Shown piece after piece: positions 1-26,966 of a stretch of 27,505 nucleotides of DNA. The notes below the pieces were generated by a model that was not told the DNA's origin, searched no databases, and saw only the letters and a program-made list of their open reading frames with translations. Both the position numbers and the translations under genes were made by a program. This DNA comes from a virus (taxonomy: Duplodnaviria > Heunggongvirae > Uroviricota > Caudoviricetes): the IMG/VR virus record IMGVR_UViG_3300001687_000947. One strand, 5' to 3'. Position 1 is the first letter of the stretch, and the number at the start of each line of letters is the position of its first letter.

Positions 1-3000
1 ACTTTTACTGGGGATGATACTGCATGGACAGAAGTTGGAACTTCACCTTATCTTGATGCTCAGGATCAACCAACTAATTATATCTATAATGCTAGTAAAA
101 AGGCTGCACAAGGATATTTTGGATTTGAAGATTCTGGATCTCTAGGTGTTATTGGTACTGTTAACTTAGAAATGTATGGTTGGAACGCAAGTGCTCTTGA
201 TGTTCATGATCTTGATATGAATGGTAATGCGTATAACATTTCATTTCCACAAGGTGCTTGGGGATGGAGCACAGTTGATATTACTTCAGATTATTCTGAT
301 TGGTCAATTATTTCAAACGCTTCTTTACAAATTATATCTGAGAACAATAATAATGCTGTTAGTATTGATGTGGCTAGAATAGTTGTTTATTATGCTGCAG
401 GCTCTGAAACTGCTGATGTTTACTTAACATCTTTATATGGAAACTTAGCTAATGTTTCACAAACATATGATTTTATTAATGATATTAGGAATACCGTTAA
501 TAAAAGCATTGATGGTTTTCATACCTTATATGTTTCAGCAAGTAAATTATATTCTTTTATATGGGATGATATAAGTCAAGTATCTAGTACTCTTACAGGT
601 ATTTATAGTTATATTTTACCTAAAGTAGATAAGGTATTAACTGTAATACATAATAATTTAAGTAATGTCTCTAAGACTATAGAAGGATTATATAAAAGAT
701 TTGAACGTTTAGGTCAAAATGATTTTAGTAATCACCTTAATGTGTTCCAGATAAGAGATTATGTTGATGCAATTAATAGTATAGGATATGATATTAGTAG
801 TGGACTTGAGCAAGTAAGTAAATTGCTTATTTCAATATGGAAAAGCTATGCTAATGTTGATGTTACATTAACAAGCTTATCTAATATTAAATCATATGTT
901 ACTAAAGCTAGTTCTATGTTATATGATAATCTAGTTGCTGTTAGTAGTCAATTATCTTCTTTATGGAAAAATATTGCATCAGTAAGTAAAACAGTAGTTA
1001 TTGATTATGGTTTTGCTGGTTTAGTTAATAAACTAATTACTTTAACACATGGTTTACTACAGAACATTAATGCTACATCATCCTTTAACTTTAATGTTAA
1101 AACTAAAGTTAATCAAACTATATCTTCAGTACATAAATTGCTTAGTAATGTAAGTAAATCAAGTGTTATTGGATACAAACTATTACAGAATATATCTAAG
1201 TTACTTGGTATAGAATATAATGTTGGCATAGGATGGTTAAGTGGATGGAGTTACCGTAAGCAACATGTCTTTAATTCATTAACTGGAGCTGGATCTAATT
1301 ATCAAGCAAAGTTCATTGGGCATCAAGATAGTGGATCTGATTCTGGAGATAATGTTTACTTTAACTTTAAAGTTAATCCTGACTATAGTGATATTAGGGT
1401 AACAAAGGTAGATGGTCTTACTTTAGTTGATAGTTGGTTAGGAGAGAATAAGAGAACAGTTAGTATTGCTACAAGTAATGCTAGGGATCAGGGAATACAT
1501 AATATTATTAGACCTTCAACTTATTATTTTAATGGATATACTTACTTTGGTTATATTGGTCACAGTACTGATTTTGATGTTTATATAAAACGCTTTGATC
1601 ATAGTACTAAACAATGGTCTAGTCCCGTGTATGTACATGATGGTTATGATAATCATGGGGCTCCTTGTATATGGGTTGATGCAGATGGTTATATTCACGT
1701 TATAGGATCTGGGCATGATGCTGCTTATTTACATCATTCAGTTTCTACCAATACAGAAGATATTTCTGCTTGGACTGCTCTAGATGATATAGATGATGGA
1801 TCTTACGCTACTAGTTATCCAACTATATATCAGGATCCAACAGATAAAGATACTGTTTGGTTATTAGCTAGAGAGGGTTATGCTTCAGATTCAAGTTGGT
1901 TTATATGGAAATCTACTGATGGTGGTACAACTTGGAGTCTTAAACAAACTATTGTTGACTATGAAACTGCTCAGTATGTTATGCCAGGACAAATGTATGA
2001 TGGTAAGATATATTTAATATTTCTTGAGTATGATTATGGTGGAAATGGTAATGTTGATTACTTTGCATTCTATTTTGATACTAGTGATAATAAATGCTAT
2101 GCTCCTGATGGAACTGATTTAGGAACAACTGTTACTACTTCAGAAGCTTTGTCTTATTGTCAAGTAATAGATAGTCAACCATATAATATTGGGGGTGCTG
2201 TTACTAGAGTTGGAACTACTGGAGACTGGTATATTATAGCTAATGTTGAAGATAGTAGTGAATCATTTTGGAGACTTAATCTTTATAAATGGAATGGAAG
2301 TAGTTGGGATATGACTACGCTTCAAGAGATACCCATTTCAAAGTACATTGAGTTTAGAGTATTAGATGAAAATGATCTTCAAATATGGTTAGGTTGTAAT
2401 GATGCTTCTACTACTTACCAGACTGTTCAAGAATGGAGATATAAAGATGGAAAGTTTACTCATGTCCGCAATTTATTCTTAGGCTCTGATAGTCCTTATA
2501 CTGTTATGTACATTAAGTGGCAAATTCATAGTAATGGAATTGATTTACTCTTTGCTGATCAATATCTTGGTCAACCTAGCACAGACATTAAAGTTTATGC
2601 TTATTCTTATAGTGGAATCTTTGGAAGTGATCAAGATATTTGGGTCAAAGTTCCAGAGGATATAAGCTCTAATCCTTATACTATTTATGTTTACTATGGA
2701 AATGGTGGAGCTAGTACCGTTAGTTCCATTATAGATACCATGTTAGCTGGAAATGATGGAGTAGAAGGAAACTTTAGTGAAGAAACTGTTGGAACAGGGT
2801 CTCTTGAAACTACTTTAGATGTTTATAGAAGCTCTGGTAATTCTACTGGTGATGCTTATGTAGCTGGTTATGATATTACTAATTGGAACTGGTATGCTAG
2901 TGTTGAGAGAATGGATGTTGCTAGTAGCAGTTTATCTTCAGATAATGATGAAGTTATCTTTGGATTATTTGATTCTGATACTATTGATATTACTGGAACT

Positions 3001-5151
3001 AGTGTTAATGTTGATGCTAAGAGAAGATTTGTTGTTACTAGAACTGCTCCAGGATCTGATCTTTATAGCAATTCTATTATGGTAGCTTATTATGATGATG
3101 GTGGAACCATGAGAACTTGGGATGGAAGTGCTTGGACTACAAATACAGTTAGAACTTCAGCTACTTATGATGTTCATGTTGATATGTGGAGTGATGGAAG
3201 TAACTTATTTGCTGATATATACAAGGAAACAACTAATACTAGCTATTTTAGTTCTTCTGCTTCTATTTCAATCTCAAGCGTTGATACTTTTACTAATGGA
3301 ACTGTCTTAGTTTATGGTGAACCTTATACTGATAAAGGTTATATTACTACTCAAGTGGATGATTTCTATATTAGGAAATATGTTGGATCTGAAGTAACCA
3401 ATGGAACTTGGGGAGAAGAAGAAAGTGAAGGAATCTTTGTCTATAAACTATTAGTGTTTATGTTTGACAGTATTGGTGGAGTAATTAAGCAACTTGCTAG
3501 TATATTTGGAATAAATAATGTTGTTAATACTTCAGTTGAAGCTATATATAAACTCAGAGAAAACGTATTTAATACAACTGCATTAAAGTATAATATTCAA
3601 TCATTGGTAAATAAAACAAGTTCATTTTTACATAATATTTTAGCTAATGTGTCTAGTTCAACAACTATGAAATATAATTTGAATACAATTGTTAACAAGG
3701 TACAATCATTACTATATGATATTATTGCTAAAGTTTCTAATAATACAGAATTAACATATAATATTAGAAGTCTTAAGGAAAGGACATTATCTTTATTATA
3801 TTCATTGAAATCTAAAATAAGTAATTCTGTTACTATGGGATATGAAATTAGAGAGTATATATCTAATTCAATTAGTTCAATTTATGGTTTGCTTAGTAAT
3901 GTATCTAATACATTAGAAGCAAGATATGGTTTAATAGCTAAGGTTAACAAGCTATTCTCCAGTTTCTATGATGTTATTGTTGGTGGAATAGTAAATACTA
4001 CAATATCATTATCTTACAGTTTAGTATCTAAAGTTAACCAGTTACTTAATAGCTTATATGATAATAGAGTTACTAGAGAAAAACTGAGCTCATTTGGATA
4101 TAATCTTAAGAGTAATGTAAGTAAAGCAATATCAATATTATATAAACTTAAGGCTAATATAAGTGATATACTTAATGGAAATTGGACTATTAGTGAAAAT
4201 GTTAGTAATTCAATAGTTGCTGGTGGATATAATATACTTGAAAATGTTACTAAGATATTAGATTCAATATATGACAATATGACTAACGTAAGTAAAACAT
4301 TAGAATCAATATATAATATTATAGCAAAACTAAATGTTAATGTTGAAATATCTTATGAAATTAATAAATTAGTAAATGCTACATTAAGTTCATTACATAA
4401 GTTATATGCTAATATTTCAAATAGTATAGTATCTGAATATGGATTACGGACTAAGATATCTAAAGTGTTATCAGCATTTTATGATATAATAGTTAGTGGA
4501 ATAGTTAGTAAAACATTAAGTTTAACTCATAGTTTAATAGCTAAAGTAAATGATAGTTTAGATGTTAAATATAGTATTATGTCATTAAGAGATAAACTGT
4601 ATTCATTCAGTTGGAAACTTAAAGAAAATATAAGTAAATCAATAATATCACCTTATGGTTTAAGAGCTAATGTAACTAAGCAATTAAGTTCATTCTACAA
4701 TATTATAGTTTCAGGTATGGTTAATTTACAGTTTGTTATGTCATATAGTCTTAGACAGAACATTAACAAGTTGCTTTCATCTAACTATTCAATATTAGAA
4801 CTTATGGGCAAAACAATGGAGTTAGGGTACAATATACTTAGTAATATAGATAAATTGTTTATTGGTAATTACAATAATATAGTTAATGTAATTAAGTCAT
4901 TTAGTTCAAACTATTTAACTAAAACTAATATAAACAATTCACTTTCTTCAATGTATACCATAGTAAGTAAAGTCTCTAAGATATTAGTTTCTAGCTGGTA
5001 TATATTATCAGGTTATATAACTTCTATAATAACTGAGGTTATTAAGCCAACAAGCACTTACATAGTAGTATCAGGTAAGAATACATATGAAATAATTAAG
5101 AAGAAAGCTAGATATATACTTAAAACATTATTAAAGAGAGGAGAATCTTAG
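1..5151 (+). CDS. Giant virion fibre/adhesin-like protein, 5'-truncated (>1716 aa): beta-sandwich domain, 14-aa repeats, DUF2341-like domain with inserted BNR beta-propeller and ConA-like domain, 14-aa repeats
   Basis: Frame 1 is open from base 1 (TFTGDDTAWTEVGTSPYLD...) into the annotated Met at 172, so the true start lies upstream of the window. Motifs: W-x-Y-R...SDIRVT...W and IWVKVP...IYVYYGN (DUF2341-like); DNHGAPCIWVDADGYIHV (BNR_4-like); Asp-box KSTDGGTTW at 1909-1935. Confidence 0.7.
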   Translation, partial: TFTGDDTAWTEVGTSPYLDAQDQPTNYIYNASKKAAQGYFGFEDSGSLGVIGTVNLEMYGWNASALDVHDLDMNGNAYNISFPQGAWGWSTVDITSDYSDWSIISNASLQIISENNNNAVSIDVARIVVYYAAGSETADVYLTSLYGNLANVSQTYDFINDIRNTVNKSIDGFHTLYVSASKLYSFIWDDISQVSSTLTGIYSYILPKVDKVLTVIHNNLSNVSKTIEGLYKRFERLGQNDFSNHLNVFQIRDYVDAINSIGYDISSGLEQVSKLLISIWKSYANVDVTLTSLSNIKSYVTKASSMLYDNLVAVSSQLSSLWKNIASVSKTVVIDYGFAGLVNKLITLTHGLLQNINATSSFNFNVKTKVNQTISSVHKLLSNVSKSSVIGYKLLQNISKLLGIEYNVGIGWLSGWSYRKQHVFNSLTGAGSNYQAKFIGHQDSGSDSGDNVYFNFKVNPDYSDIRVTKVDGLTLVDSWLGENKRTVSIATSNARDQGIHNIIRPSTYYFNGYTYFGYIGHSTDFDVYIKRFDHSTKQWSSPVYVHDGYDNHGAPCIWVDADGYIHVIGSGHDAAYLHHSVSTNTEDISAWTALDDIDDGSYATSYPTIYQDPTDKDTVWLLAREGYASDSSWFIWKSTDGGTTWSLKQTIVDYETAQYVMPGQMYDGKIYLIFLEYDYGGNGNVDYFAFYFDTSDNKCYAPDGTDLGTTVTTSEALSYCQVIDSQPYNIGGAVTRVGTTGDWYIIANVEDSSESFWRLNLYKWNGSSWDMTTLQEIPISKYIEFRVLDENDLQIWLGCNDASTTYQTVQEWRYKDGKFTHVRNLFLGSDSPYTVMYIKWQIHSNGIDLLFADQYLGQPSTDIKVYAYSYSGIFGSDQDIWVKVPEDISSNPYTIYVYYGNGGASTVSSIIDTMLAGNDGVEGNFSEETVGTGSLETTLDVYRSSGNSTGDAYVAGYDITNWNWYASVERMDVASSSLSSDNDEVIFGLFDSDTIDITGTSVNVDAKRRFVVTRTAPGSDLYSNSIMVAYYDDGGTMRTWDGSAWTTNTVRTSATYDVHVDMWSDGSNLFADIYKETTNTSYFSSSASISISSVDTFTNGTVLVYGEPYTDKGYITTQVDDFYIRKYVGSEVTNGTWGEEESEGIFVYKLLVFMFDSIGGVIKQLASIFGINNVVNTSVEAIYKLRENVFNTTALKYNIQSLVNKTSSFLHNILANVSSSTTMKYNLNTIVNKVQSLLYDIIAKVSNNTELTYNIRSLKERTLSLLYSLKSKISNSVTMGYEIREYISNSISSIYGLLSNVSNTLEARYGLIAKVNKLFSSFYDVIVGGIVNTTISLSYSLVSKVNQLLNSLYDNRVTREKLSSFGYNLKSNVSKAISILYKLKANISDILNGNWTISENVSNSIVAGGYNILENVTKILDSIYDNMTNVSKTLESIYNIIAKLNVNVEISYEINKLVNATLSSLHKLYANISNSIVSEYGLRTKISKVLSAFYDIIVSGIVSKTLSLTHSLIAKVNDSLDVKYSIMSLRDKLYSFSWKLKENISKSIISPYGLRANVTKQLSSFYNIIVSGMVNLQFVMSYSLRQNINKLLSSNYSILELMGKTMELGYNILSNIDKLFIGNYNNIVNVIKSFSSNYLTKTNINNSLSSMYTIVSKVSKILVSSWYILSGYITSIITEVIKPTSTYIVVSGKNTYEIIKKKARYILKTLLKRGES
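412..1227 (+). repeat. N-terminal block of about 18 degenerate 14-aa (42-nt) protein repeats
   Basis: Translation parses as VSKLLISIWKSYAN/VDVTLTSLSNIKSY/VTKASSMLYDNLVA/VSSQLSSLWKNIAS/VSKTVVIDYGFAGL/VNKLITLTHGLLQN etc.; V/I at position 1, aromatic or His at position 9. Confidence 0.8.
3481..5016 (+). repeat. C-terminal block of about 36 degenerate 14-aa protein repeats
   Basis: Manual parse from VIKQLASIFGINNV to VSKILVSSWYILSG gives 36 units of 14 aa (a few 15-16 aa) with the same consensus as the N-terminal block. Confidence 0.85.
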
Positions 5152-19773: not shown

Positions 19774-22305
19774 ATGACATCTATTACAACTGATGGAACC
19801 GTGTTAATGGTTGGTGGAGACCCATTTTATATTCAGGGTATGCAAGAGAATATGAATCCAAATATTTGTTTAAATGGTCCAACTGATTATTGGAATCTTG
19901 AGCATTTTCAAGATCTTAAAGAGCATGGTTGTAATTTTGTTGAAACTAATAATATACCTTGGAGCTATTATATTAAAAGTGATGGTTATCCAAATACTGC
20001 TCAGACAGAGAAAGTACTAGATGTTTTTGCTGATTGGGCTCAGCAAGAACATGTTTATTATTTATTTACTATGGTTGGATTTAATGGTCCATCATGGAAA
20101 ATACCTTCATGGTGGAATGCTGGTAGAACAAGTGATGAGTTTGAAGTTGATATGTATAACTTAGCTGAAACTGATCTTAATTCAGCAAGAGCATCTGTTT
20201 ATAGATTCTGGGATTTTATAGCTGATAGATATAAAAATAATTCATATGTTTTACTTAACTTCTTTAATGAACCATTTTATGGTAATGATATTGCAAGATA
20301 TGGTGGACAAGCTAGTTTACATACACAAAGATATGTTGATATGGTTGAGAAAATTTATGATACTGTTAGGGCAGCTGGGTTCAATAATTTAATTTTTGTT
20401 GATTTTCCAGGAACTTATTATCATACTTCAGCTAGGATAGATGTTGATAGGGACGTATGTTATGAAGGTCACTTGTATCTTATTCCATTTACTTGGATTA
20501 ATACTATGAGTACATGGAAAATAGAAATAGACCGTTTTGAAGATATATTCTGTACTGATTTTGGTAAACCATGTTTTATTGGTGAATATGGATTCATAGG
20601 CACTTTACGTTGGGATAGTGATGGTGATGGTACTCTAGATAGTACTGATTATACTCAGATAAATGCTGATTTCTATCTTAGACAAAATCCAATCTGGGAA
20701 AGTGTACTTGCTGAGGAAGTTGATTATATTGAGAATTCAACTAATTTATGTGGTCACAGTTGGCATTGTCATGGATGGTTATATGGTGGATGGTATCATT
20801 ATTATTGGGGACAAAGGGGAGCAGATGTTTTTGATGCTAATGAAAGTGAATGGTTAATGAATTTGGTGTTAAGTGGAACAATTCCTGATACTGTTCCACC
20901 TACTCCACCTAGTACATTGATATTTACTGATGGAGAAGAAGGTTCTTCACAGGAAACATATGGTGATTTTAGTGCTTGGGATGGTACTGTTGTTGTAGGT
21001 AGTGAATCTATGTTGATTTCAACTGAGTATCCTCATCATGGATCATTATCTTTTAAGTCCGTTACTCAAGGTAGTCAAGGATATTATGGTTTAGCTTATA
21101 GGCTTGGTTACGTTTCTGAAAGTACTCTTAATCTTGAGATACAAAATGCTAGGTTTAATGGTACTCCTGATGTTGTAAGTACAGGCTATACTTGGATGGG
21201 AGTATCTGGCATTGATGGTGTTAATAAAACTAATGCTAGAGCTGGAATATATAATGATAATGGAACATTAGAATGGTTTATTAGAGCTAGACATGATGGT
21301 GGTTTTACTAATGTTCATACTATAGTAGCTACTACACCTCAGATTAATACTAATTATAGTATGGAACTTGAGTGCATTAAAAATGGAACATTAACTCTTT
21401 ATGTTAATGGAACAGCAGAATGTCAACTTGCAGGATGGAATACTGATAGAGCATTTAACTATACATTCATAGGATTCTGCTTTAATGAGGGAACAAGTTC
21501 ACCAGCTACATTCTGGTGTGACTGTGTTAGAATGACCCCTTCAACAGTTGATGGTGGAACTGTTCCTCCAGATACAGTTGATTTCTTATTTGCAGATGGA
21601 ACAGTTGGTTCAACTCAGGAAACAGCTGTTAATTTTAGTGCTTGGGATGGCACATTCTGTAGTTCAGGTAATACTGCTGCTATTACAACAATGAATCCTC
21701 ATCATGGTTCACTTTCATTTACTTTCTATGTTGATGAAGATCCAACAGAATGGTGTATGGCTTACCATGAGTTATCTGATACTATTAATACTTTAGATAT
21801 TAGAGCAATGAACTTTAGAACAACTCAGGGTCCAGGTTCAGTTGGTGCTAGATACCAGTTTATGGGATTCAGTAGAAGTGGATCACTTACTTATCAGTTT
21901 ACTCAAGCTAATATTGTTAATGATGATGGAACATTCAGATGGGGATTAACTTATTGGAGTGATGGATCACTTAATTATTATGAGCCAGTAATATCTAATA
22001 CTGTTGCTGTTGATACTGATTATACTGTTGAAATACAATGTATACGTGGTGATGGTACTAATGGAACAACTAGATTATATATTGATGGAACAATGGAACT
22101 TGAGGTTACTGGTGTAAGTGTTGGAAGTGAATGGGCTAGATATGCTTATATTGGTAACAGAAATAGTGGATGGGTAATTAATAAAACTACATTGAACTTT
22201 GATTGTGTTGGAATATCAACATTATATATAGGTGTTGAAGGTGAAGGAACGGCTCCACCTTCAATATCACCTGTTAGACAAGGAATTTATACTCAGATAA
22301 TATAG
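19774..22305 (+). CDS. Glycoside hydrolase (clan GH-A, GH5/cellulase-like) with two tandem lectin/LamG-like domains
   Basis: Acid/base motif FFNEP (E166, about 20269), H-x-Y motif EGHLY, nucleophile motif FIGEYG (E271, 20584), Pro/Thr linker PDTVPPTPPST; no signal peptide. Confidence 0.8.
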   Translation: MTSITTDGTVLMVGGDPFYIQGMQENMNPNICLNGPTDYWNLEHFQDLKEHGCNFVETNNIPWSYYIKSDGYPNTAQTEKVLDVFADWAQQEHVYYLFTMVGFNGPSWKIPSWWNAGRTSDEFEVDMYNLAETDLNSARASVYRFWDFIADRYKNNSYVLLNFFNEPFYGNDIARYGGQASLHTQRYVDMVEKIYDTVRAAGFNNLIFVDFPGTYYHTSARIDVDRDVCYEGHLYLIPFTWINTMSTWKIEIDRFEDIFCTDFGKPCFIGEYGFIGTLRWDSDGDGTLDSTDYTQINADFYLRQNPIWESVLAEEVDYIENSTNLCGHSWHCHGWLYGGWYHYYWGQRGADVFDANESEWLMNLVLSGTIPDTVPPTPPSTLIFTDGEEGSSQETYGDFSAWDGTVVVGSESMLISTEYPHHGSLSFKSVTQGSQGYYGLAYRLGYVSESTLNLEIQNARFNGTPDVVSTGYTWMGVSGIDGVNKTNARAGIYNDNGTLEWFIRARHDGGFTNVHTIVATTPQINTNYSMELECIKNGTLTLYVNGTAECQLAGWNTDRAFNYTFIGFCFNEGTSSPATFWCDCVRMTPSTVDGGTVPPDTVDFLFADGTVGSTQETAVNFSAWDGTFCSSGNTAAITTMNPHHGSLSFTFYVDEDPTEWCMAYHELSDTINTLDIRAMNFRTTQGPGSVGARYQFMGFSRSGSLTYQFTQANIVNDDGTFRWGLTYWSDGSLNYYEPVISNTVAVDTDYTVEIQCIRGDGTNGTTRLYIDGTMELEVTGVSVGSEWARYAYIGNRNSGWVINKTTLNFDCVGISTLYIGVEGEGTAPPSISPVRQGIYTQII
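20917..22230 (+). repeat. Tandem duplication of a roughly 220-aa beta-sandwich domain (666-nt offset)
   Basis: F-x-DG-x-x-GS-x-QET...FSAWDGT...PHHGSLSF occurs twice; the 18-nt TTTTAGTGCTTGGGATGG is identical at about 20967 and 21633. Confidence 0.85.
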
Positions 22306-22317
22306 GAGTGAACAATA

Positions 22318-22659
22318 GTGAGTTTTCCCTATAAGTTTCCTGTACCACTTGGAGGTGATATGATGGTAAATGTTATATTTGATGGAACAGTAAATGAAGC
22401 AGATGATGTTACTCCAATAGAATTACTTAATGGTATTATTCTTATAACTAGACCTGATAATAGTATAGTAACAACATTAGAAGTAACAACTTTATCTGAT
22501 GGAAGCTTTGTTGAAAATACAGAGTTATCTGACGGAGTTTATTCTGCTGTGGCAACCTTTAGTAAAGAAGGATATATAGATGGTATAGCTAAAGTTGATT
22601 TTACTGTTAAGCCTGAACTTAAGAAAATGGTGGTAACTCTTAATGTGTCTATGGAATAG
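22318..22659 (+). CDS. Small Ig-like beta-sandwich protein
   Basis: 113 aa from GTG 22318 (GGAGTGA SD), or 99 aa from ATG 22360 (GGAGGTGA SD); TTLSDGSF...DGVYSAVATF..GY is typical of Ig-like/CarboxypepD_reg-like folds. Confidence 0.5.
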   Translation: MSFPYKFPVPLGGDMMVNVIFDGTVNEADDVTPIELLNGIILITRPDNSIVTTLEVTTLSDGSFVENTELSDGVYSAVATFSKEGYIDGIAKVDFTVKPELKKMVVTLNVSME

Positions 22660-22719
22660 ACTATTAAAGTTATTATCTATTAAGAAGAAAACTATGATTG
22701 TAAAGTTAAAAGTGAAAAC

Positions 22720-24948
22720 TTAGAATATTTCCCAGTCATATGTTTGAGCTTCTTCTTCTCTAGCTCCCCAACATGCTAATTGTAAAGCATCTACACGGTC
22801 ATCATTTTGTTTTGTTGTCCAATTATATCTTCTTAATTCAGTTACTAAATTATGGTATACTTCTGGGATAGCTATTCTTTTCTGGTGGAATATTGTTTTA
22901 AGGTGGGATTGCATTCTTACTTTATACTTGTTAAACACTATAGTGTTAACAACCACTCCTTTATCTTCTAGTCTTTGGTTTTCACTAATATTTTCATGAT
23001 CTGCATAAACATATATTACATTAAAATCTCTAAGTATCTGTATTATTTTTTGTTGCATATCTTTATATTCTTCTCTACGCCAAGCATCAACAAATATTAC
23101 TCTATAAACATTATCTTTACATCTTTGTACAAGAACTATTGCTGTATAATGTTGATTATGCTGATAAGAAACTTTACCATTTCTTCTAGTAAATACTATT
23201 TCAGATGGAACATTAAATCCAACTATGGTTCCATTATATTCTATATTTCTATAATGTTCCTTACTTGGTATTGAGTCTCTACTTAGAAAATTAACTCTAT
23301 ATCCCTTTATTCCTCTATTAGAAATATATGAATGATACTTGCCAGTTTTACATGCTATTTCTTGTACATCCTCAGCTAGTCTACTGGAATAAGTATTATA
23401 TCTAATAAAGTATTTATCTCCATCTCCTTTAATAAGTGAGTCAAATAGAAAACTTAAGTAATATCCATCATATAACTTAATTTCTTGTGGAATATATTTA
23501 TCTTTAGATTTGCCCAACTTACTAAAATAATTAACTAAATTTTTATCATAAAATAATATTCTTCCATTATTATCATACCATGTGTGTATATTCATCAAGT
23601 TTCCAATTTCTATTATTTCATTAAAATAAATATTATTTGCTATTGGATCCTGATGTATACAGAATCTTGTTTTTGTATCTATATTTCCTTCTGATATATA
23701 CCAACCTAGTAATCTCATAAATAATTTAGTATTATATTTTTTATTTCCTATTTTTATATTATCTGATTTTATTCCATTATATTTTGCTTTTCTTATAATA
23801 TAATGATGTGTAACATGTTCTCCAGCATAATGCATATGCAAGTTGTTTTTGTATCTATTTTTATATGGTATTAAATGTCTAGTTTTACATAAAATATCTA
23901 AGTTTCTGTTCTTTATATGTGTCATTAATCCTTTATAGTTACTAACATTTATTGCTGTTATTTGTTGATATTCACTTTCCATGTTATTCTGGTTTAAACA
24001 TAATACTTTTTCATTCTTAGATACTTTATCTAGTCTTTTCCATCCATTTAATGTTAATACTTCAGTATCTCCAGACAAACAGTATCCCCAGTCTATACCA
24101 GCAATTACCTGAGTGTCATCCTCTACTGTAAATTGAGGTACATCCTTAACAGCATCTTTAAGTAGTTTGGGATCAATAAGTACTCCTAAACCAGAATATG
24201 CTTTACCTTCCCAGAATATAGTGAACATATCATCAGGTAATGACCGTTTAGCTTCTTCCCACTTATTTCTAGTATTAGGACAATCCATAGCATCCCAAGC
24301 CTTACGTTCCCAACCAGTATACTTTTCTTTATTCTCAGCTATTTCAACAAACTTTGATCCAAATACCATTGGTGTACCACTTAATATTATAAGATCCATA
24401 TTTGAGTGACCTATAATACGGAAAGTATCATTTATAACAAAGTCTCCAGCTATTGCTCCCTCATCAACTATTACACAATCAGTATGTTTACCTTGTATAG
24501 CTTTTTCACTATTAGGTACAGCTAATATAACTGATCTATCTTTAAAGTACACTCTACTAGTTAATGGGTCACCTTCAACTTCTGATGCTATTATAGGATT
24601 ATCTTCTATAGCACGTTTACTATGAGCATAAAGTGATTTAGCTTGATCTTCACTACCTGAAATAATTAATACTGAATAAGGACGGTTTATGAATCTAGGA
24701 AGTACCACAGTAAGCCATAATGCTATACATGAAAGTAATATACTTTTACCTGTACCACCAGCAGCTTCCAATAGTAATCTCTTTAGTCTTTCATGTTCTA
24801 CAGGTGAATTAATGCGTTTAAGCCAATTCATTACTTCTGCTTGATACTCATATGGTGGATATCCCATAGCATCATTAAAGAAACTAGGTGGATCCTTATA
24901 CCATTGTAGAAACTTTACTGCTTTATAAACTTGATCAATTTTTGGCAT
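22720..24948 (-). CDS. terL: Terminase large subunit, interrupted by an intein
   Basis: Walker A AAGGTGKS, Walker B CVIVDEG, coupling motif SGTP, nuclease GIDWG / YADHE / DDRVDAL. ATG 24948 (MPKID) has a GGTGG SD; the extein alone is about 433 aa. Confidence 0.92.
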   Translation of the reverse strand: MPKIDQVYKAVKFLQWYKDPPSFFNDAMGYPPYEYQAEVMNWLKRINSPVEHERLKRLLLEAAGGTGKSILLSCIALWLTVVLPRFINRPYSVLIISGSEDQAKSLYAHSKRAIEDNPIIASEVEGDPLTSRVYFKDRSVILAVPNSEKAIQGKHTDCVIVDEGAIAGDFVINDTFRIIGHSNMDLIILSGTPMVFGSKFVEIAENKEKYTGWERKAWDAMDCPNTRNKWEEAKRSLPDDMFTIFWEGKAYSGLGVLIDPKLLKDAVKDVPQFTVEDDTQVIAGIDWGYCLSGDTEVLTLNGWKRLDKVSKNEKVLCLNQNNMESEYQQITAINVSNYKGLMTHIKNRNLDILCKTRHLIPYKNRYKNNLHMHYAGEHVTHHYIIRKAKYNGIKSDNIKIGNKKYNTKLFMRLLGWYISEGNIDTKTRFCIHQDPIANNIYFNEIIEIGNLMNIHTWYDNNGRILFYDKNLVNYFSKLGKSKDKYIPQEIKLYDGYYLSFLFDSLIKGDGDKYFIRYNTYSSRLAEDVQEIACKTGKYHSYISNRGIKGYRVNFLSRDSIPSKEHYRNIEYNGTIVGFNVPSEIVFTRRNGKVSYQHNQHYTAIVLVQRCKDNVYRVIFVDAWRREEYKDMQQKIIQILRDFNVIYVYADHENISENQRLEDKGVVVNTIVFNKYKVRMQSHLKTIFHQKRIAIPEVYHNLVTELRRYNWTTKQNDDRVDALQLACWGAREEEAQTYDWEIF
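23155..24081 (-). mobile_element. 309-aa intein with a LAGLIDADG homing endonuclease and a non-canonical C-terminal junction (HN|Q)
   Basis: Block A CLSGDTEVLTLNGW; HEN blocks LLGWYISEG, LIKGDG and TYSSRLAEDVQ; C-terminal RRNGKVSYQHN. Removing it restores GIDWGY-QHYTAIVLV. Confidence 0.9.
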
Positions 24949-25471
24949 TTTGTTGTTCCCACCTGCTAGCAAATTTCTCTAAGTATTCTGGTGGGAAATC
25001 ATGCATACATCTTATTATTCTATGGAACAAATCATCTGTTGTTTCTTGTATTTCAAGTTTAGTACTCCATTTAAGATATTGCTCTATAGAATATCTTGCT
25101 TCACCAACAAACTTAAGGAATAACTCTCCATATTGCTTAATATCTTCAAGTGACCGTATTTCTTTACTTATAGTTTCAACTCTGTTAGTTACAAGTTGCA
25201 AGTTTCTACTGAATGTTTTAACTATCTCTATATCACGCTTAATGGTTTCTCTAACTACTTTATCTCTAAGTTGATTAGCTTTAATTGTTTCACTTACTAA
25301 AGTTTCCACATGATTAGCAAAATGTTTCTGGAAATTAAAGTATTTAAGATGTTTTTCACTATGTTTAGTATAAGCTATTCTCACTATATCTTTAATACTG
25401 GTTCCTTCAAGCCTAAGTTTATCATATTCTTTATGATGAGGACTAGAACATATTTTACAGATTCTACCCAT
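24935..25471 (-). CDS. terS: Probable terminase small subunit (N-terminal CxxC...H/H zinc-binding HTH, helical C-terminus)
   Basis: Directly upstream of and overlapping terL; CKIC...KHFANH pattern followed by a helical oligomerisation-type region. ATG 25471 (MGRICKIC) has a GGTGG SD at 25482-25478. Confidence 0.6.
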   Translation of the reverse strand: MGRICKICSSPHHKEYDKLRLEGTSIKDIVRIAYTKHSEKHLKYFNFQKHFANHVETLVSETIKANQLRDKVVRETIKRDIEIVKTFSRNLQLVTNRVETISKEIRSLEDIKQYGELFLKFVGEARYSIEQYLKWSTKLEIQETTDDLFHRIIRCMHDFPPEYLEKFASRWEQQNAKN

Positions 25472-25508
25472 AGATGACCACCAAGTACCATAAGTAACCA
25501 AAATACAG

Positions 25509-25520
25509 TATATAAAGGTT
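25509..25520 (-). promoter_or_regulatory. BRE/TATA of the terS-terL operon (AACCTTTATATA on the - strand)
   Basis: Matches the + strand element at 6204; TTTATATA begins 34 nt upstream of the terS SD. Confidence 0.6.
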
Positions 25521-25689
25521 CCACATTAAAATAGAAAATTCAAGCTATATTAAATAAACATAACACTTAAGATTCCATAAAAAACCCATAATAGCTACAC
25601 TATAAAATGTATATCCTTATATTGTATATTAAGTTTTCATATATGGATGTTATCCTTAACTTTAGATTTAAATAAATAAAAATAATGTG

Positions 25690-26382
25690 TTAAGCTAAGA
25701 TTTTTATTCTTAACTTATTTGAAAATTGTATTTCTGCTAACTGATAGATAAATTCTATGGCTTTGTCAATATCTAAGGTTTTGATATAATCTATGTTTGC
25801 GTATATTCTACGTTTAAGATTTCCAATTTTAGATTCTACTTTTTGGTTGTAAGGGTGTTTATAATCTTTTACTAAATGAAATATGTTTAAGTGTGTATCT
25901 GTAAACTTAGCATTAGTGTCAATTCCTATATTCTTATATCCTTTTGATAATGCTTTTAATAGCATATCTCCAAAGAATAACTTTTTTTCTCCACAATTTT
26001 TTAAGCATTTATAGAGTTTAATATTAACATTAATACCATTAGATAATATTGCTAATTTGATTTTATATTTATTATTAAACACTAGTACTCTTTGAGATTT
26101 ATTAGAATCACATAGAGATTTAAAAGTGATATCTGATAAATCTATGATTGCGTCAACCTTTGAAGGATTAATTTTACTATCTTTTTTTATACGTTTCAAT
26201 TTATCCTTTGATAGTTTTGTTTTATATCCCATTGCTTTAATTTTTGTTACTGATATTTTACTAAGTTTACTTATCTTAGAATAGCCTAGATTTAGTTTAA
26301 GTGATTCTTCTATAATGCTTTGTTGTATAGCTGTTATAACCGTTGTTTTTCTTCCATATTTGTTACCTTTTTTGAATCCCAT
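25690..26382 (-). CDS. HTH protein with a degenerate DDE/RNase H-like transposase core
   Basis: HTH-like LGYSKISKLSKISVTKI. IGIDTNAKF and HPYNQKVESKIGNLKRR resemble the second-Asp and Glu motifs of IS6/IS481/IS1595-type transposases. No terminal inverted repeats were found. Confidence 0.4.
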   Translation of the reverse strand: MGFKKGNKYGRKTTVITAIQQSIIEESLKLNLGYSKISKLSKISVTKIKAMGYKTKLSKDKLKRIKKDSKINPSKVDAIIDLSDITFKSLCDSNKSQRVLVFNNKYKIKLAILSNGINVNIKLYKCLKNCGEKKLFFGDMLLKALSKGYKNIGIDTNAKFTDTHLNIFHLVKDYKHPYNQKVESKIGNLKRRIYANIDYIKTLDIDKAIEFIYQLAEIQFSNKLRIKILA

Positions 26383-26664
26383 ATTTTAAACCTAAACTCT
26401 AATTTGTTTTATGAATATTTAAAACCTTTTATGCTAGTGTAAAATTTATGTAAAAAATTAGTTTTATATAAAACAATATTTTAACATATTTTAGTTAATG
26501 AGTATAGTTTACAAAATTTTAAATATAACTTATTTACATAACGTAAGATTGATTTAAAATGTCAAAACATAAAAACCAAAAGCTAGATGCCAAAACCTTA
26601 AGGGAATTGGTTATTTTATCAGAAATATTTGATTGTATATATATTATAAAGGGGGGAAATCTAA

Positions 26665-26910
26665 TTGACTGATTACAGATTTTATATTATAGATGCTGAT
26701 AGGGTAGTAACTTACAAAGGTAAAAATATTAAGTTAAATGATGCTATTAATAAAATTCAAATGGAATCAAAATTATTTACTTTTACTGATGTAATCCATT
26801 CTTTAATAGTCTTATATGACTTATTAAATAAAGAACTAGAAATAAAACCAACAGTAAAACCCAAAAACCAAACAACAGAAAATAACCTAAACTATGACAT
26901 ACACACCTAA
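26665..26910 (+). CDS. Hypothetical protein
   Basis: 81 aa, TTG start after a G-run; plausible N-terminal two-thirds and a compositionally odd C/A-rich 3' end. Confidence 0.35.
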   Translation: MTDYRFYIIDADRVVTYKGKNIKLNDAINKIQMESKLFTFTDVIHSLIVLYDLLNKELEIKPTVKPKNQTTENNLNYDIHT

Positions 26911-26966
26911 ACCCAAACCACCCATCTTTACATATATCCATTATATTCTTTTCTTTATTTTGTGTT

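Follow-up and report, generated by a model that had tools for sequence, protein, structure and literature searches.

The residue that follows an intein, position +1 of the C-terminal flank (C-extein), is described in reviews as Cys, Ser or Thr ('usually', PMC7664689). The step that requires this residue defines canonical splicing, and bacterial intein-like (BIL) domains are treated as a separate, non-mobile and mostly self-cleaving group. BIL domains are not known to carry a homing endonuclease or to be present or absent at a conserved site; they reside in non-essential bacterial proteins, many of them secreted, within regions that vary. Those of type A end in His-Asn, have no nucleophile at +1, and can nevertheless splice by thioester formation, Asn cyclisation and aminolysis (Amitai 2003, Dassa 2004, Aranko 2013, reviewed in PMC4031507; PMC7664689). 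They supply the only experimentally supported joining of protein flanks without a nucleophilic side chain (PMC4031507, PMC7664689; structure 2LWY). Here we analyse an element with the same ends in the large terminase gene (TerL) of an uncultured tailed virus, IMG/VR record IMGVR_UViG_3300001687_000947; the whole stretch of 27,505 nucleotides under study is referred to as the window. The element, located at 23155..24081 on the minus strand, is a mobile LAGLIDADG intein in the nuclease hairpin of TerL and a member of an old, site-specific clade; on our tentative reading it is active and splices via a thioester, Asn cyclisation and aminolysis.

Apart from type A BIL domains, two groups of described inteins invite comparison. 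Class 1 LAGLIDADG inteins (PI-SceI, TliVMA, PhoVMA, PI-PfuI, PI-PkoII) share with our element the fold, the architecture, Cys1, the block B His and the terminal Asn, as well as in-frame insertion at a conserved site, the existence of empty alleles, and homing. In contrast, the clade described here is without the +1 nucleophile that defines class 1, and the block F residue serving that nucleophile has been lost. Inteins are also known from TerL of mycobacteriophages, where they possess active endonucleases and are distributed patchily among related phages (Kelley et al. 2016, PMC5050341). These were shown to splice, in the canonical way, and all of their seven sites lie in the ATPase domain (PMC5050341), whereas the present site lies in the nuclease domain. 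In a 2025 survey of actinobacteriophage inteins, 'non-canonical' refers to the endonuclease architecture, and the word 'nucleophile' is absent from the text. In the literature searched we found no intein clade without a C-extein nucleophile, no 'class 4' intein, and no Asgard-virus terminase intein of this kind.

The TerL gene including the intein spans 22720..24972 on the minus strand, the strand of all TerL features given below. We number residues by the 750-aa frame that opens at TTG 24972, where the intein comprises 309 residues (298-606); ATG 24948 is the more likely start, judging by its agreement with the database protein P0002, and gives 742 aa, with the intein at 290-598. The N-extein (24082..24972) contains the ATPase domain, with Walker A at 24742-24765 and Walker B at 24457-24477, and the nuclease strand beta-1, as deduced from alignment and an AlphaFold2 (AF2) model. 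It ends in IAGIDWGY (24082-24105), which carries the catalytic Asp294. The C-extein (22720..23154) begins with QHYT and holds the remaining RNase H-like nuclease domain according to Pfam, AF2 and Foldseek. The initial annotation had placed the element at the same coordinates, with a Cys after GIDWGY, a His-Asn end and a CAA Gln codon at 23154-23152. Our minus-strand reading agrees: GIDWGY is followed by Cys (TGT, 24081-24079), the element ends with His (CAT, 23160-23158) and Asn (AAT, 23157-23155), and the C-extein continues with Gln and HYTAIVLV. The insertion point is three residues past Asp294, the first catalytic Asp of the nuclease, in the beta1-beta2 hairpin. The +1 codon CAA (23152..23154) encodes Gln607, a non-nucleophile. 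Enumeration of its nine single-base neighbours (K, E, stop, P, R, L, H, Q, H) bears out the further claim that no single change converts it to a Ser, Thr or Cys codon.

Within the intein, a Hint domain and an inserted LAGLIDADG homing endonuclease can be delineated. Block A (24040..24081) starts with Cys298, the Cys1 of the element. Block B, NLDILCKTRHLIPY (23863..23904), includes Asn357, Lys363 and His366 (codon 23877-23875). The two LAGLIDADG motifs, FMRLLGWYISEGN (23683..23721) and LFDSLIKGDGDKY (23410..23448), contribute the acidic residues Glu428 and Asp517, respectively. Blocks F and G, TIVGFNVPSEIVFTRRNGKVSYQHN (23155..23229), contain Gly585 at position F:4 and the terminal His605-Asn606 at 23160-23155. 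The earlier readings of block B (LCKTRH), block F (IVGFNV) and both acidic residues proved correct: block B has Lys in place of the Thr found in 84 of 92 relatives but retains His366, and block F has Gly where relatives have Cys (81/92) or Asp (8/92). The GC content of the intein is 23-25%, compared with about 33% in the flanks.

The unspliced protein, whose modelling the initial annotation had proposed, was predicted by AF2 for residues 262-750 from an alignment of 96 rows (pLDDT 94.9, pTM 0.86). The nuclease strands beta-1 (residues 289-294) and beta-2 (610-617) flank the Hint termini in this model, such that the insert stands between them and the nuclease folds around it. Foldseek relates the insert best to the inteins TliVMA, PhoVMA, PI-SceI and PI-PfuI (E 1e-15 to 1e-8) and to I-DmoI (E 7e-6), and the nuclease part to the terminase nucleases of G20c and D6E. 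A profile of the intein matches PI-PkoII, the Spl DnaX mini-intein and the AceL NrdHF intein, and His366 aligns with the block B His of the Spl DnaX mini-intein. Pfam has no family for residues 290-620, including no Hint or BIL model, and a PDB search with the single sequence gave marginal matches only; profile and structure searches were needed. For the terminase itself, Pfam Terminase_6C matches residues 605-733 (E 1.8e-8), and a P-loop ATPase joined to an RNase H-like nuclease with its catalytic Asp is recognizable from Pfam, the alignment and the G20c/D6E matches.

Measured against the established classes, the element shows a Hint fold with blocks A, B, F and G, Cys1, a terminal His-Asn and in-frame insertion at a conserved site, as expected of an intein, and two acidic residues in an I-DmoI-like fold, as expected of a two-motif LAGLIDADG endonuclease, for which DNA cleavage is predicted. 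With Gln607 at +1 it departs from class 1, which has Ser, Thr or Cys there. It does not fall into class 3 either: that class has no nucleophile at residue 1 and uses the F:4 Cys of a Trp-Cys-Thr motif, whereas the present element has Cys1, and Gly at F:4, a position that varies across the clade. With BIL domains it shares the Hint domain, the N-terminal Cys and the His-Asn end without Ser, Thr or Cys at +1, but it has an intact LAGLIDADG endonuclease, it homes, and its place is the catalytic core of a viral enzyme that is essential, not a variable protein. By ancestry, fold, genetics and the logic of its site, the element is an intein, though it lacks one defining intein feature and two defining BIL features.

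Three lines of evidence fix its boundaries. Empty alleles read G-x-D-W-G-[WYF]-x-H-[YP]-T and align without gaps once the stretch from Cys to Asn is removed. Two samples of nearly the same virus, L002 (protein P0006, with intein) and L003 (P0030, empty), have TerL open reading frames (ORFs) of equal length after removal of exactly 960 nt. Finally, the terminal Asn of related inteins aligns to N606. Likewise, the empty allele P0044 (GVDWGH-FPSPT) shows the precise flanks of the intein-bearing P0010. A sequencing or assembly error, or a misplaced junction, has no evidence in its favour, and we regard it as negligible. A second ENA assembly, L005, covers 20720-26942 with 5 single-nucleotide polymorphisms (SNPs) in 6.2 kb; its intein and +1 codon are identical to those of the window, and all 3 SNPs within TerL are synonymous. 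The initial annotation had conceded that the genome might be a lone decayed copy among canonical relatives, or that the C-terminal junction might lie elsewhere. Neither holds: 18 alleles share the trait, L005 has the same junction, and L002/L003 confirm it at the nucleotide level.

Other trivial explanations were rejected as well. An alternative genetic code is incompatible with +1 codons that vary among alleles (CAA, AGA, CGC and others). An RNA intron is not in accordance with an unbroken in-frame Hint and LAGLIDADG ORF of 309 codons at 23-25% GC. A junction shifted to Thr610 would leave a hairpin three residues shorter than in all empty alleles.

To place the missing nucleophile in context, the +1 residue was tabulated over TerL homologues with and without the insert, as had been recommended earlier. 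The word-indexed sequence search yielded at least 38 TerL homologues; together with a profile search of 1.84 billion representatives it supplied 182 proteins, in which an intein hidden Markov model located each copy and its junctions. In eighteen non-redundant alleles the intein is inserted at exactly this place in the TerL nuclease, G-x-D-[WYF]-G-[WYFH] / intein / x. At +1 these alleles have Arg (four), Phe, Tyr, Ala and Thr (two each) and Gln, Glu, Gly, Met, Asp and Val (one each), with no Cys or Ser; the Thr alleles are P0047 and P0065/L008. The 74 empty alleles show a similar spread (R11, E8, A8, K8, V7, S6, N5, T5, G5, Q4, others), 15% of them having Ser or Thr. Hence +1 is a non-nucleophile in 16/18 intein alleles and 63/74 empty alleles, with no difference between the two sets of residues (Fisher p = 1). 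P0004, an empty sister allele, has Gln at +1, as in the window, and the hairpin flanks (W-G-aromatic, x-H/D/P-x-T) are equally conserved in intein and empty alleles. A scan of genome contigs returned no relative, no GenBank phage record carries this TerL, and the alleles P0003 and P0023 are absent from IMG/VR.

The related inteins at other sites behave quite differently. Among 124 of them, +1 is Ser in 79, Thr in 21 and Cys in 18, so at least 118/124 have a nucleophile (against the clade, p = 2e-14), and the six exceptions are mostly visible alignment slips of 1-2 residues. A further 65 relatives in IMG/VR are canonical at +1 without exception (65/65), and Thr, Ser and Ser follow the inteins that occupy three further sites in this TerL family. 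The ends of the inteins differ in parallel: His-Asn terminates all 18 alleles, in contrast to Gly-Asn in 104/124 relatives. Residue 1 is Cys in 15 and Ser in one of the 16 alleles whose N-terminus is present.

These relatives, about 190 in number, are of the type Cys1 ... [YW]-Cys(F:4) ... Gly-Asn / Ser/Thr/Cys and occur in viral and in large multi-intein proteins. They are 24-34% identical to our intein and share with it block A (C-x-x-x-x-T-E-[VI]-L-T), the endonuclease and R-R-N-G-K before the C-terminus, but differ in having kept the +1 nucleophile, Gly before the terminal Asn and Cys at F:4. Their signature of Gly-Asn and Cys F:4 is common to the AceL NrdHF intein (PDB 6ZGQ), filed as class 3. 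Among them are the inteins at the three further sites in this TerL family and those at the corresponding nuclease site in other TerL families (P0180, L032). Very large proteins of 2000-3700 aa, such as P0101 (3308 aa), P0116 (2602 aa) and P0129 (3693 aa), often carry several canonical relatives each, and as many as 8-9 stretches match in one protein. L032 and P0180 have, in the equivalent nuclease hairpin, inteins with Gly-Asn and canonical +1 (G-M-D-F-G-L / intein / T-P-A-A and G-C-D-I-A-R-F-G / intein / S-D-D-T), which hints at how the clade may have come to the TerL nuclease site before its dependence on +1 was lost.

Some TerL alleles contain two inteins each, namely P0010 (1142 aa), P0040 (1104 aa) and P0045 (1083 aa). 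In P0010 and P0040 a nuclease-site intein without +1 nucleophile is accompanied by a canonical relative (Gly-Asn/Ser) elsewhere in TerL, after Q-G-Q-H near Walker B or after G-D-D-F-V-D, and both intein types thus coexist within one TerL protein. Another unusual arrangement is found in L008, a 107-kb IMG/VR record with direct terminal repeats that is rated complete. Its TerL (1480-3784) lies in two overlapping frames: a 184-aa ORF stops just past Walker B (2034), and the remainder, with the Thr+1 nuclease-site intein, is open in the other frame from about 2017. A frameshift, a programmed shift or an assembly error may account for this split. Two IMG/VR records allowed intein-bearing genomes to be examined for a second, intact TerL; in the complete genome of 107 kb (G002) this locus is the only TerL, and its allele has Thr at +1.

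When 108 inteins were placed in one tree, the 16 full alleles grouped as a single clade (SH-aLRT 96) that lies within the canonical relatives. The tree contained no BIL-A sequences and therefore speaks only indirectly on that group, yet this position is at odds with common descent from type A BIL domains. Because the clade descends from canonical inteins by this tree, its resemblance to BIL domains is convergent. The penultimate residue is His in 16/16 clade members, whereas among relatives it is Gly in 86/92 and His in 1/92. Position F:4, which is Cys in 81/92 relatives and Asp in 8/92, is variable in the clade (S, G, A, M, D and others), and the Thr position of block B is Lys in 8/16 and Thr in 6/16. 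Asn357, His389 and Arg524 are kept in 14-16 of the 16 members and are rare among relatives. His389 (23806..23808) is found in 16/16 in the clade-only alignment, in 15/16 with one gap in the mixed alignment, and in fewer than 8/92 canonical relatives.

Sequence divergence within the clade is considerable. Mean intein identity is 38%, and of the 309 positions no more than 37 are the same in 15/16 alleles or more. Among these are Cys1, His366, His605, Asn606 and both acidic residues of the endonuclease with their neighbours (Glu428 15/16, Gly429 16/16; Asp517 15/16, Gly516 and Gly518 16/16). That Cys1, His366, His605 and Asn606 are conserved amid 38% identity, and that the sole substitute for Cys1 is Ser, likewise a nucleophile, indicates that the chemistries at both junctions are under selection. 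By this pattern of conservation, the residue serving the +1 nucleophile was freed from selection while the junction chemistries were kept or reinforced, which is a change of mechanism and not decay.

This conservation bears directly on the possibility that the intein is never removed, in which case an 86-kDa terminase-endonuclease fusion would persist, the adjacent Hint termini in a surface hairpin making the insert tolerable. The initial annotation had listed such a tolerated, unspliced element first among its options. Canonical splicing is indeed impossible without a +1 nucleophile, and the model folds both domains confidently with the insert present. Without a need for the chemistry, however, Cys1, the block B His and His-Asn should drift, and yet they are invariant in 16-18 alleles, with Cys to Ser as the only change at position 1. 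Moreover, the clade gained a penultimate His that its relatives do not have, and the insert begins three residues from the catalytic Asp294, adjoining the nuclease active site. A permanent unspliced insert is, on these alignments, unlikely.

Next to be considered is whether the host genes are intact. Selection on TerL was judged by conservation, by branch lengths and by the SNPs relative to L005 (3 synonymous, 0 non-synonymous). For a ratio of non-synonymous to synonymous rates (dN/dS), proposed earlier for the Hint and endonuclease regions, synonymous sites would be saturated, the closest intein pair being 63-64% identical at the protein level. Intein and extein divergence are correlated (Mantel r = 0.73, p = 2e-4), with extein identities of 21-64%, and the extein branches of intein-bearing alleles are similar in length to those of empty sisters. 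Several pairs of intein-bearing and empty sisters have the same +1 residue: P0001/P0004 (Q), P0010/P0044 (F), P0051/P0123 (D) and P0042/P0022 (R). P0023 and P0026, both with intein and Tyr at +1, group with the empty P0049 (Tyr) in one four-member group. P0003, with Arg at +1, recurs without any change on 16 contigs, whose assemblies belong to three collections (ENA, JGI, Logan). By these measures, TerL remains functional and under normal constraint in intein-bearing alleles.

These data also speak to a scenario of dead-end invasions, in which the intein persists in Thr/Ser+1 alleles and repeatedly homes into others, the resulting defective genomes being packaged in trans upon co-infection and merely picked up by metagenomic sampling. 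Two alleles with Thr at +1 exist (P0047; P0065/L008), TerL acts in trans, and homing is active, all of which would suit such a source-sink dynamic. Nevertheless, entire subclades share non-nucleophiles and have co-diverged with their exteins (the F/Y group at 41-69% extein identity; the Q/R/E group), the intein-extein correlation is strong, the exteins of intein alleles are not accelerated, and the Arg allele P0003 recurs unaltered across collections. We consider dead-end invasions very improbable. The clade is old and mobile and resides in constrained TerL genes; thus both this reading and that of a defective virus, the last option of the initial annotation, are rejected.

Mobility itself is evident from two observations. 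First, intein presence is scattered on the extein tree (94 rows), with 15 changes, at least 10 of which are forced by well-supported branches. Second, L002 and L003 are 98.8% identical upstream of the gene (18 mismatches in 1500 nt), and their TerL ORFs, 1275 nt each once the 960 nt are taken out of L002, differ by 40 mismatches, 27 of which are concentrated between -40 and +100 nt of the junction (p = 4e-17). The clustered mismatches are mostly synonymous and include the +1 codon (AGA Arg vs AAG Lys). Such a cluster is the signature of co-conversion and implies that the element homes. By these sequence signatures, the intein is mobile among related viruses by homing.

How, then, might an intein of this kind leave its host protein? 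Going by the +1 residues, the canonical second step, transesterification to the +1 side chain, is impossible in 16/18 alleles. By analogy with type A BIL domains, aminolysis is the most likely route, and we infer the following three steps. Cys298, aided by the block B His366, would undergo an N-S acyl shift, producing a thioester at Tyr297. Asn606 would then cyclise with the help of the clade-specific His605 and thereby free the alpha-amine of the +1 residue, whatever its side chain. The free amine, which the Hint fold and the pairing of the extein strands would keep near the thioester, would finally attack that thioester directly. The predicted product is a native Tyr297-Gln607 bond in an intact TerL of the same length as in empty alleles, and the released intein would act as homing endonuclease upon empty alleles. 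Since aminolysis is indifferent to the +1 side chain, it fits the observed spread of +1 residues, and the penultimate His, once gained, would help Asn to cyclise even though no branched intermediate is formed.

Several points weigh against efficient ligation. Class 1 inteins with +1 mutated to Ala generally cleave instead of ligating. In the type A BIL domains tested so far, cleavage products outweigh the spliced product, and one BIL domain with Tyr at +1 spliced only after mutation to Cys (PMC4031507). The dominance of cleavage in BIL domains means that aminolysis is not automatically efficient. All allele sequences are derived from metagenomes.

The main rival is cleavage alone. If hydrolysis of the Cys1 thioester and Asn cyclisation removed the intein without ligation, a two-chain terminase would result, consisting of the ATPase with nuclease beta-1 and of the remaining nuclease, held together by beta-1 as the central strand of the folded RNase H-like sheet. 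The conserved Cys1 and His-Asn suit cleavage as well as ligation, and BIL domains without a +1 nucleophile yield mainly cleaved products (PMC7664689; PMC4031507). As AF2 folds the nuclease round the insert, a nick in the hairpin could be tolerated. Aeh1 NrdA, a phage enzyme split by a homing endonuclease gene, is reportedly active as two chains. On the other hand, the hairpin flanks are as conserved as in empty alleles, which is unexpected for a permanently open turn, and thioester and amine are held together, so that ligation competes with hydrolysis. Furthermore, cleavage would expose an N-terminal Phe, Tyr or Arg, destabilising in bacteria, in 8/18 alleles, a weak argument in that it presupposes a bacterial host. 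We judge cleavage only to be rather unlikely, while taking it more seriously than any other rival. Both it and aminolysis had been offered by the initial annotation and both stand; aminolysis has experimental precedent in type A BIL domains and is predicted here by analogy with them.

A surrogate nucleophile further into the C-extein may also be envisaged. A Thr at +4, or +5 in alleles with F/Y-P-x-P-T, would attack the thioester, and after Asn cyclisation either an ester-branched TerL would remain or the free +1 amine would resolve the branch to a peptide bond. Thr610 is invariant in the intein alleles (+4 in 12/16, +5 in 4). The same Thr/Ser is, however, conserved in all empty alleles and in TerL generally and hence uninformative, and the ester would be unable to rearrange by the normal 1,2 O-N shift. 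To our knowledge, no intein or BIL domain uses a nucleophile beyond +1. We give this route very little credence.

Returning to splicing by aminolysis, we propose with reserve that the clade may represent a fourth mechanistic kind of true intein: mobile, endonuclease-bearing, located in an essential gene, and splicing without a C-extein side-chain nucleophile next to almost any +1 residue. It would have originated from canonical inteins by gaining the penultimate His, losing the block F helper and converging on the chemistry of type A BIL domains.

Besides TerL, the window holds genes for capsid and tail tube proteins, for a tape-measure-like protein and for one with a GH5 domain. Upstream of TerL, and overlapping its start, is a 188-aa ORF at 24935-25501 (-) with Cys-x2-Cys ... 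His-His at its beginning. A family search with this ORF gave no match; a counterpart is also located upstream of TerL in L008, and by position alone a gene of 178-183 aa takes this place in L001, L002 and L003. The ORF is likely the small terminase. Directly downstream of the tail genes, 19774-22305 (+) encodes an 843-aa protein with an N-terminal GH5 cellulase domain (Pfam E 3.5e-12) and two mutually similar C-terminal modules, each with F/Y-SAWDGT and NPHHGSLSF motifs, possibly a virion-associated glycan depolymerase or receptor-binding protein. The ORF at 1-5151 (+), open at the window start and at least 1659 aa long, combines BNR/sialidase-like repeats (PF15892, E 1.9e-11) with a weak match to a tape-measure family (phrog_305), which is unusual for a tail protein. 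Concerning the host, one TerL homologue, the sole named one, is located on a 2-kb contig binned to a Thorarchaeota metagenome-assembled genome, which is a weak hint.

A monophyletic lineage that is, genetically, a classic homing intein in an essential viral enzyme has persisted without the +1 residue down to about 21% TerL identity. If its members ligate their exteins, proteins can splice in nature without regard to the side chain at +1, and BIL-like chemistry can arise from an ordinary intein, which would provide a concrete evolutionary route between the two groups. They would then also be a natural starting point for traceless protein ligation, limited so far by the need for Cys, Ser or Thr at the junction. 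If they only cleave or stay in place, they would show that a packaging motor, though essential, can put up with a selfish element in a manner not described before.

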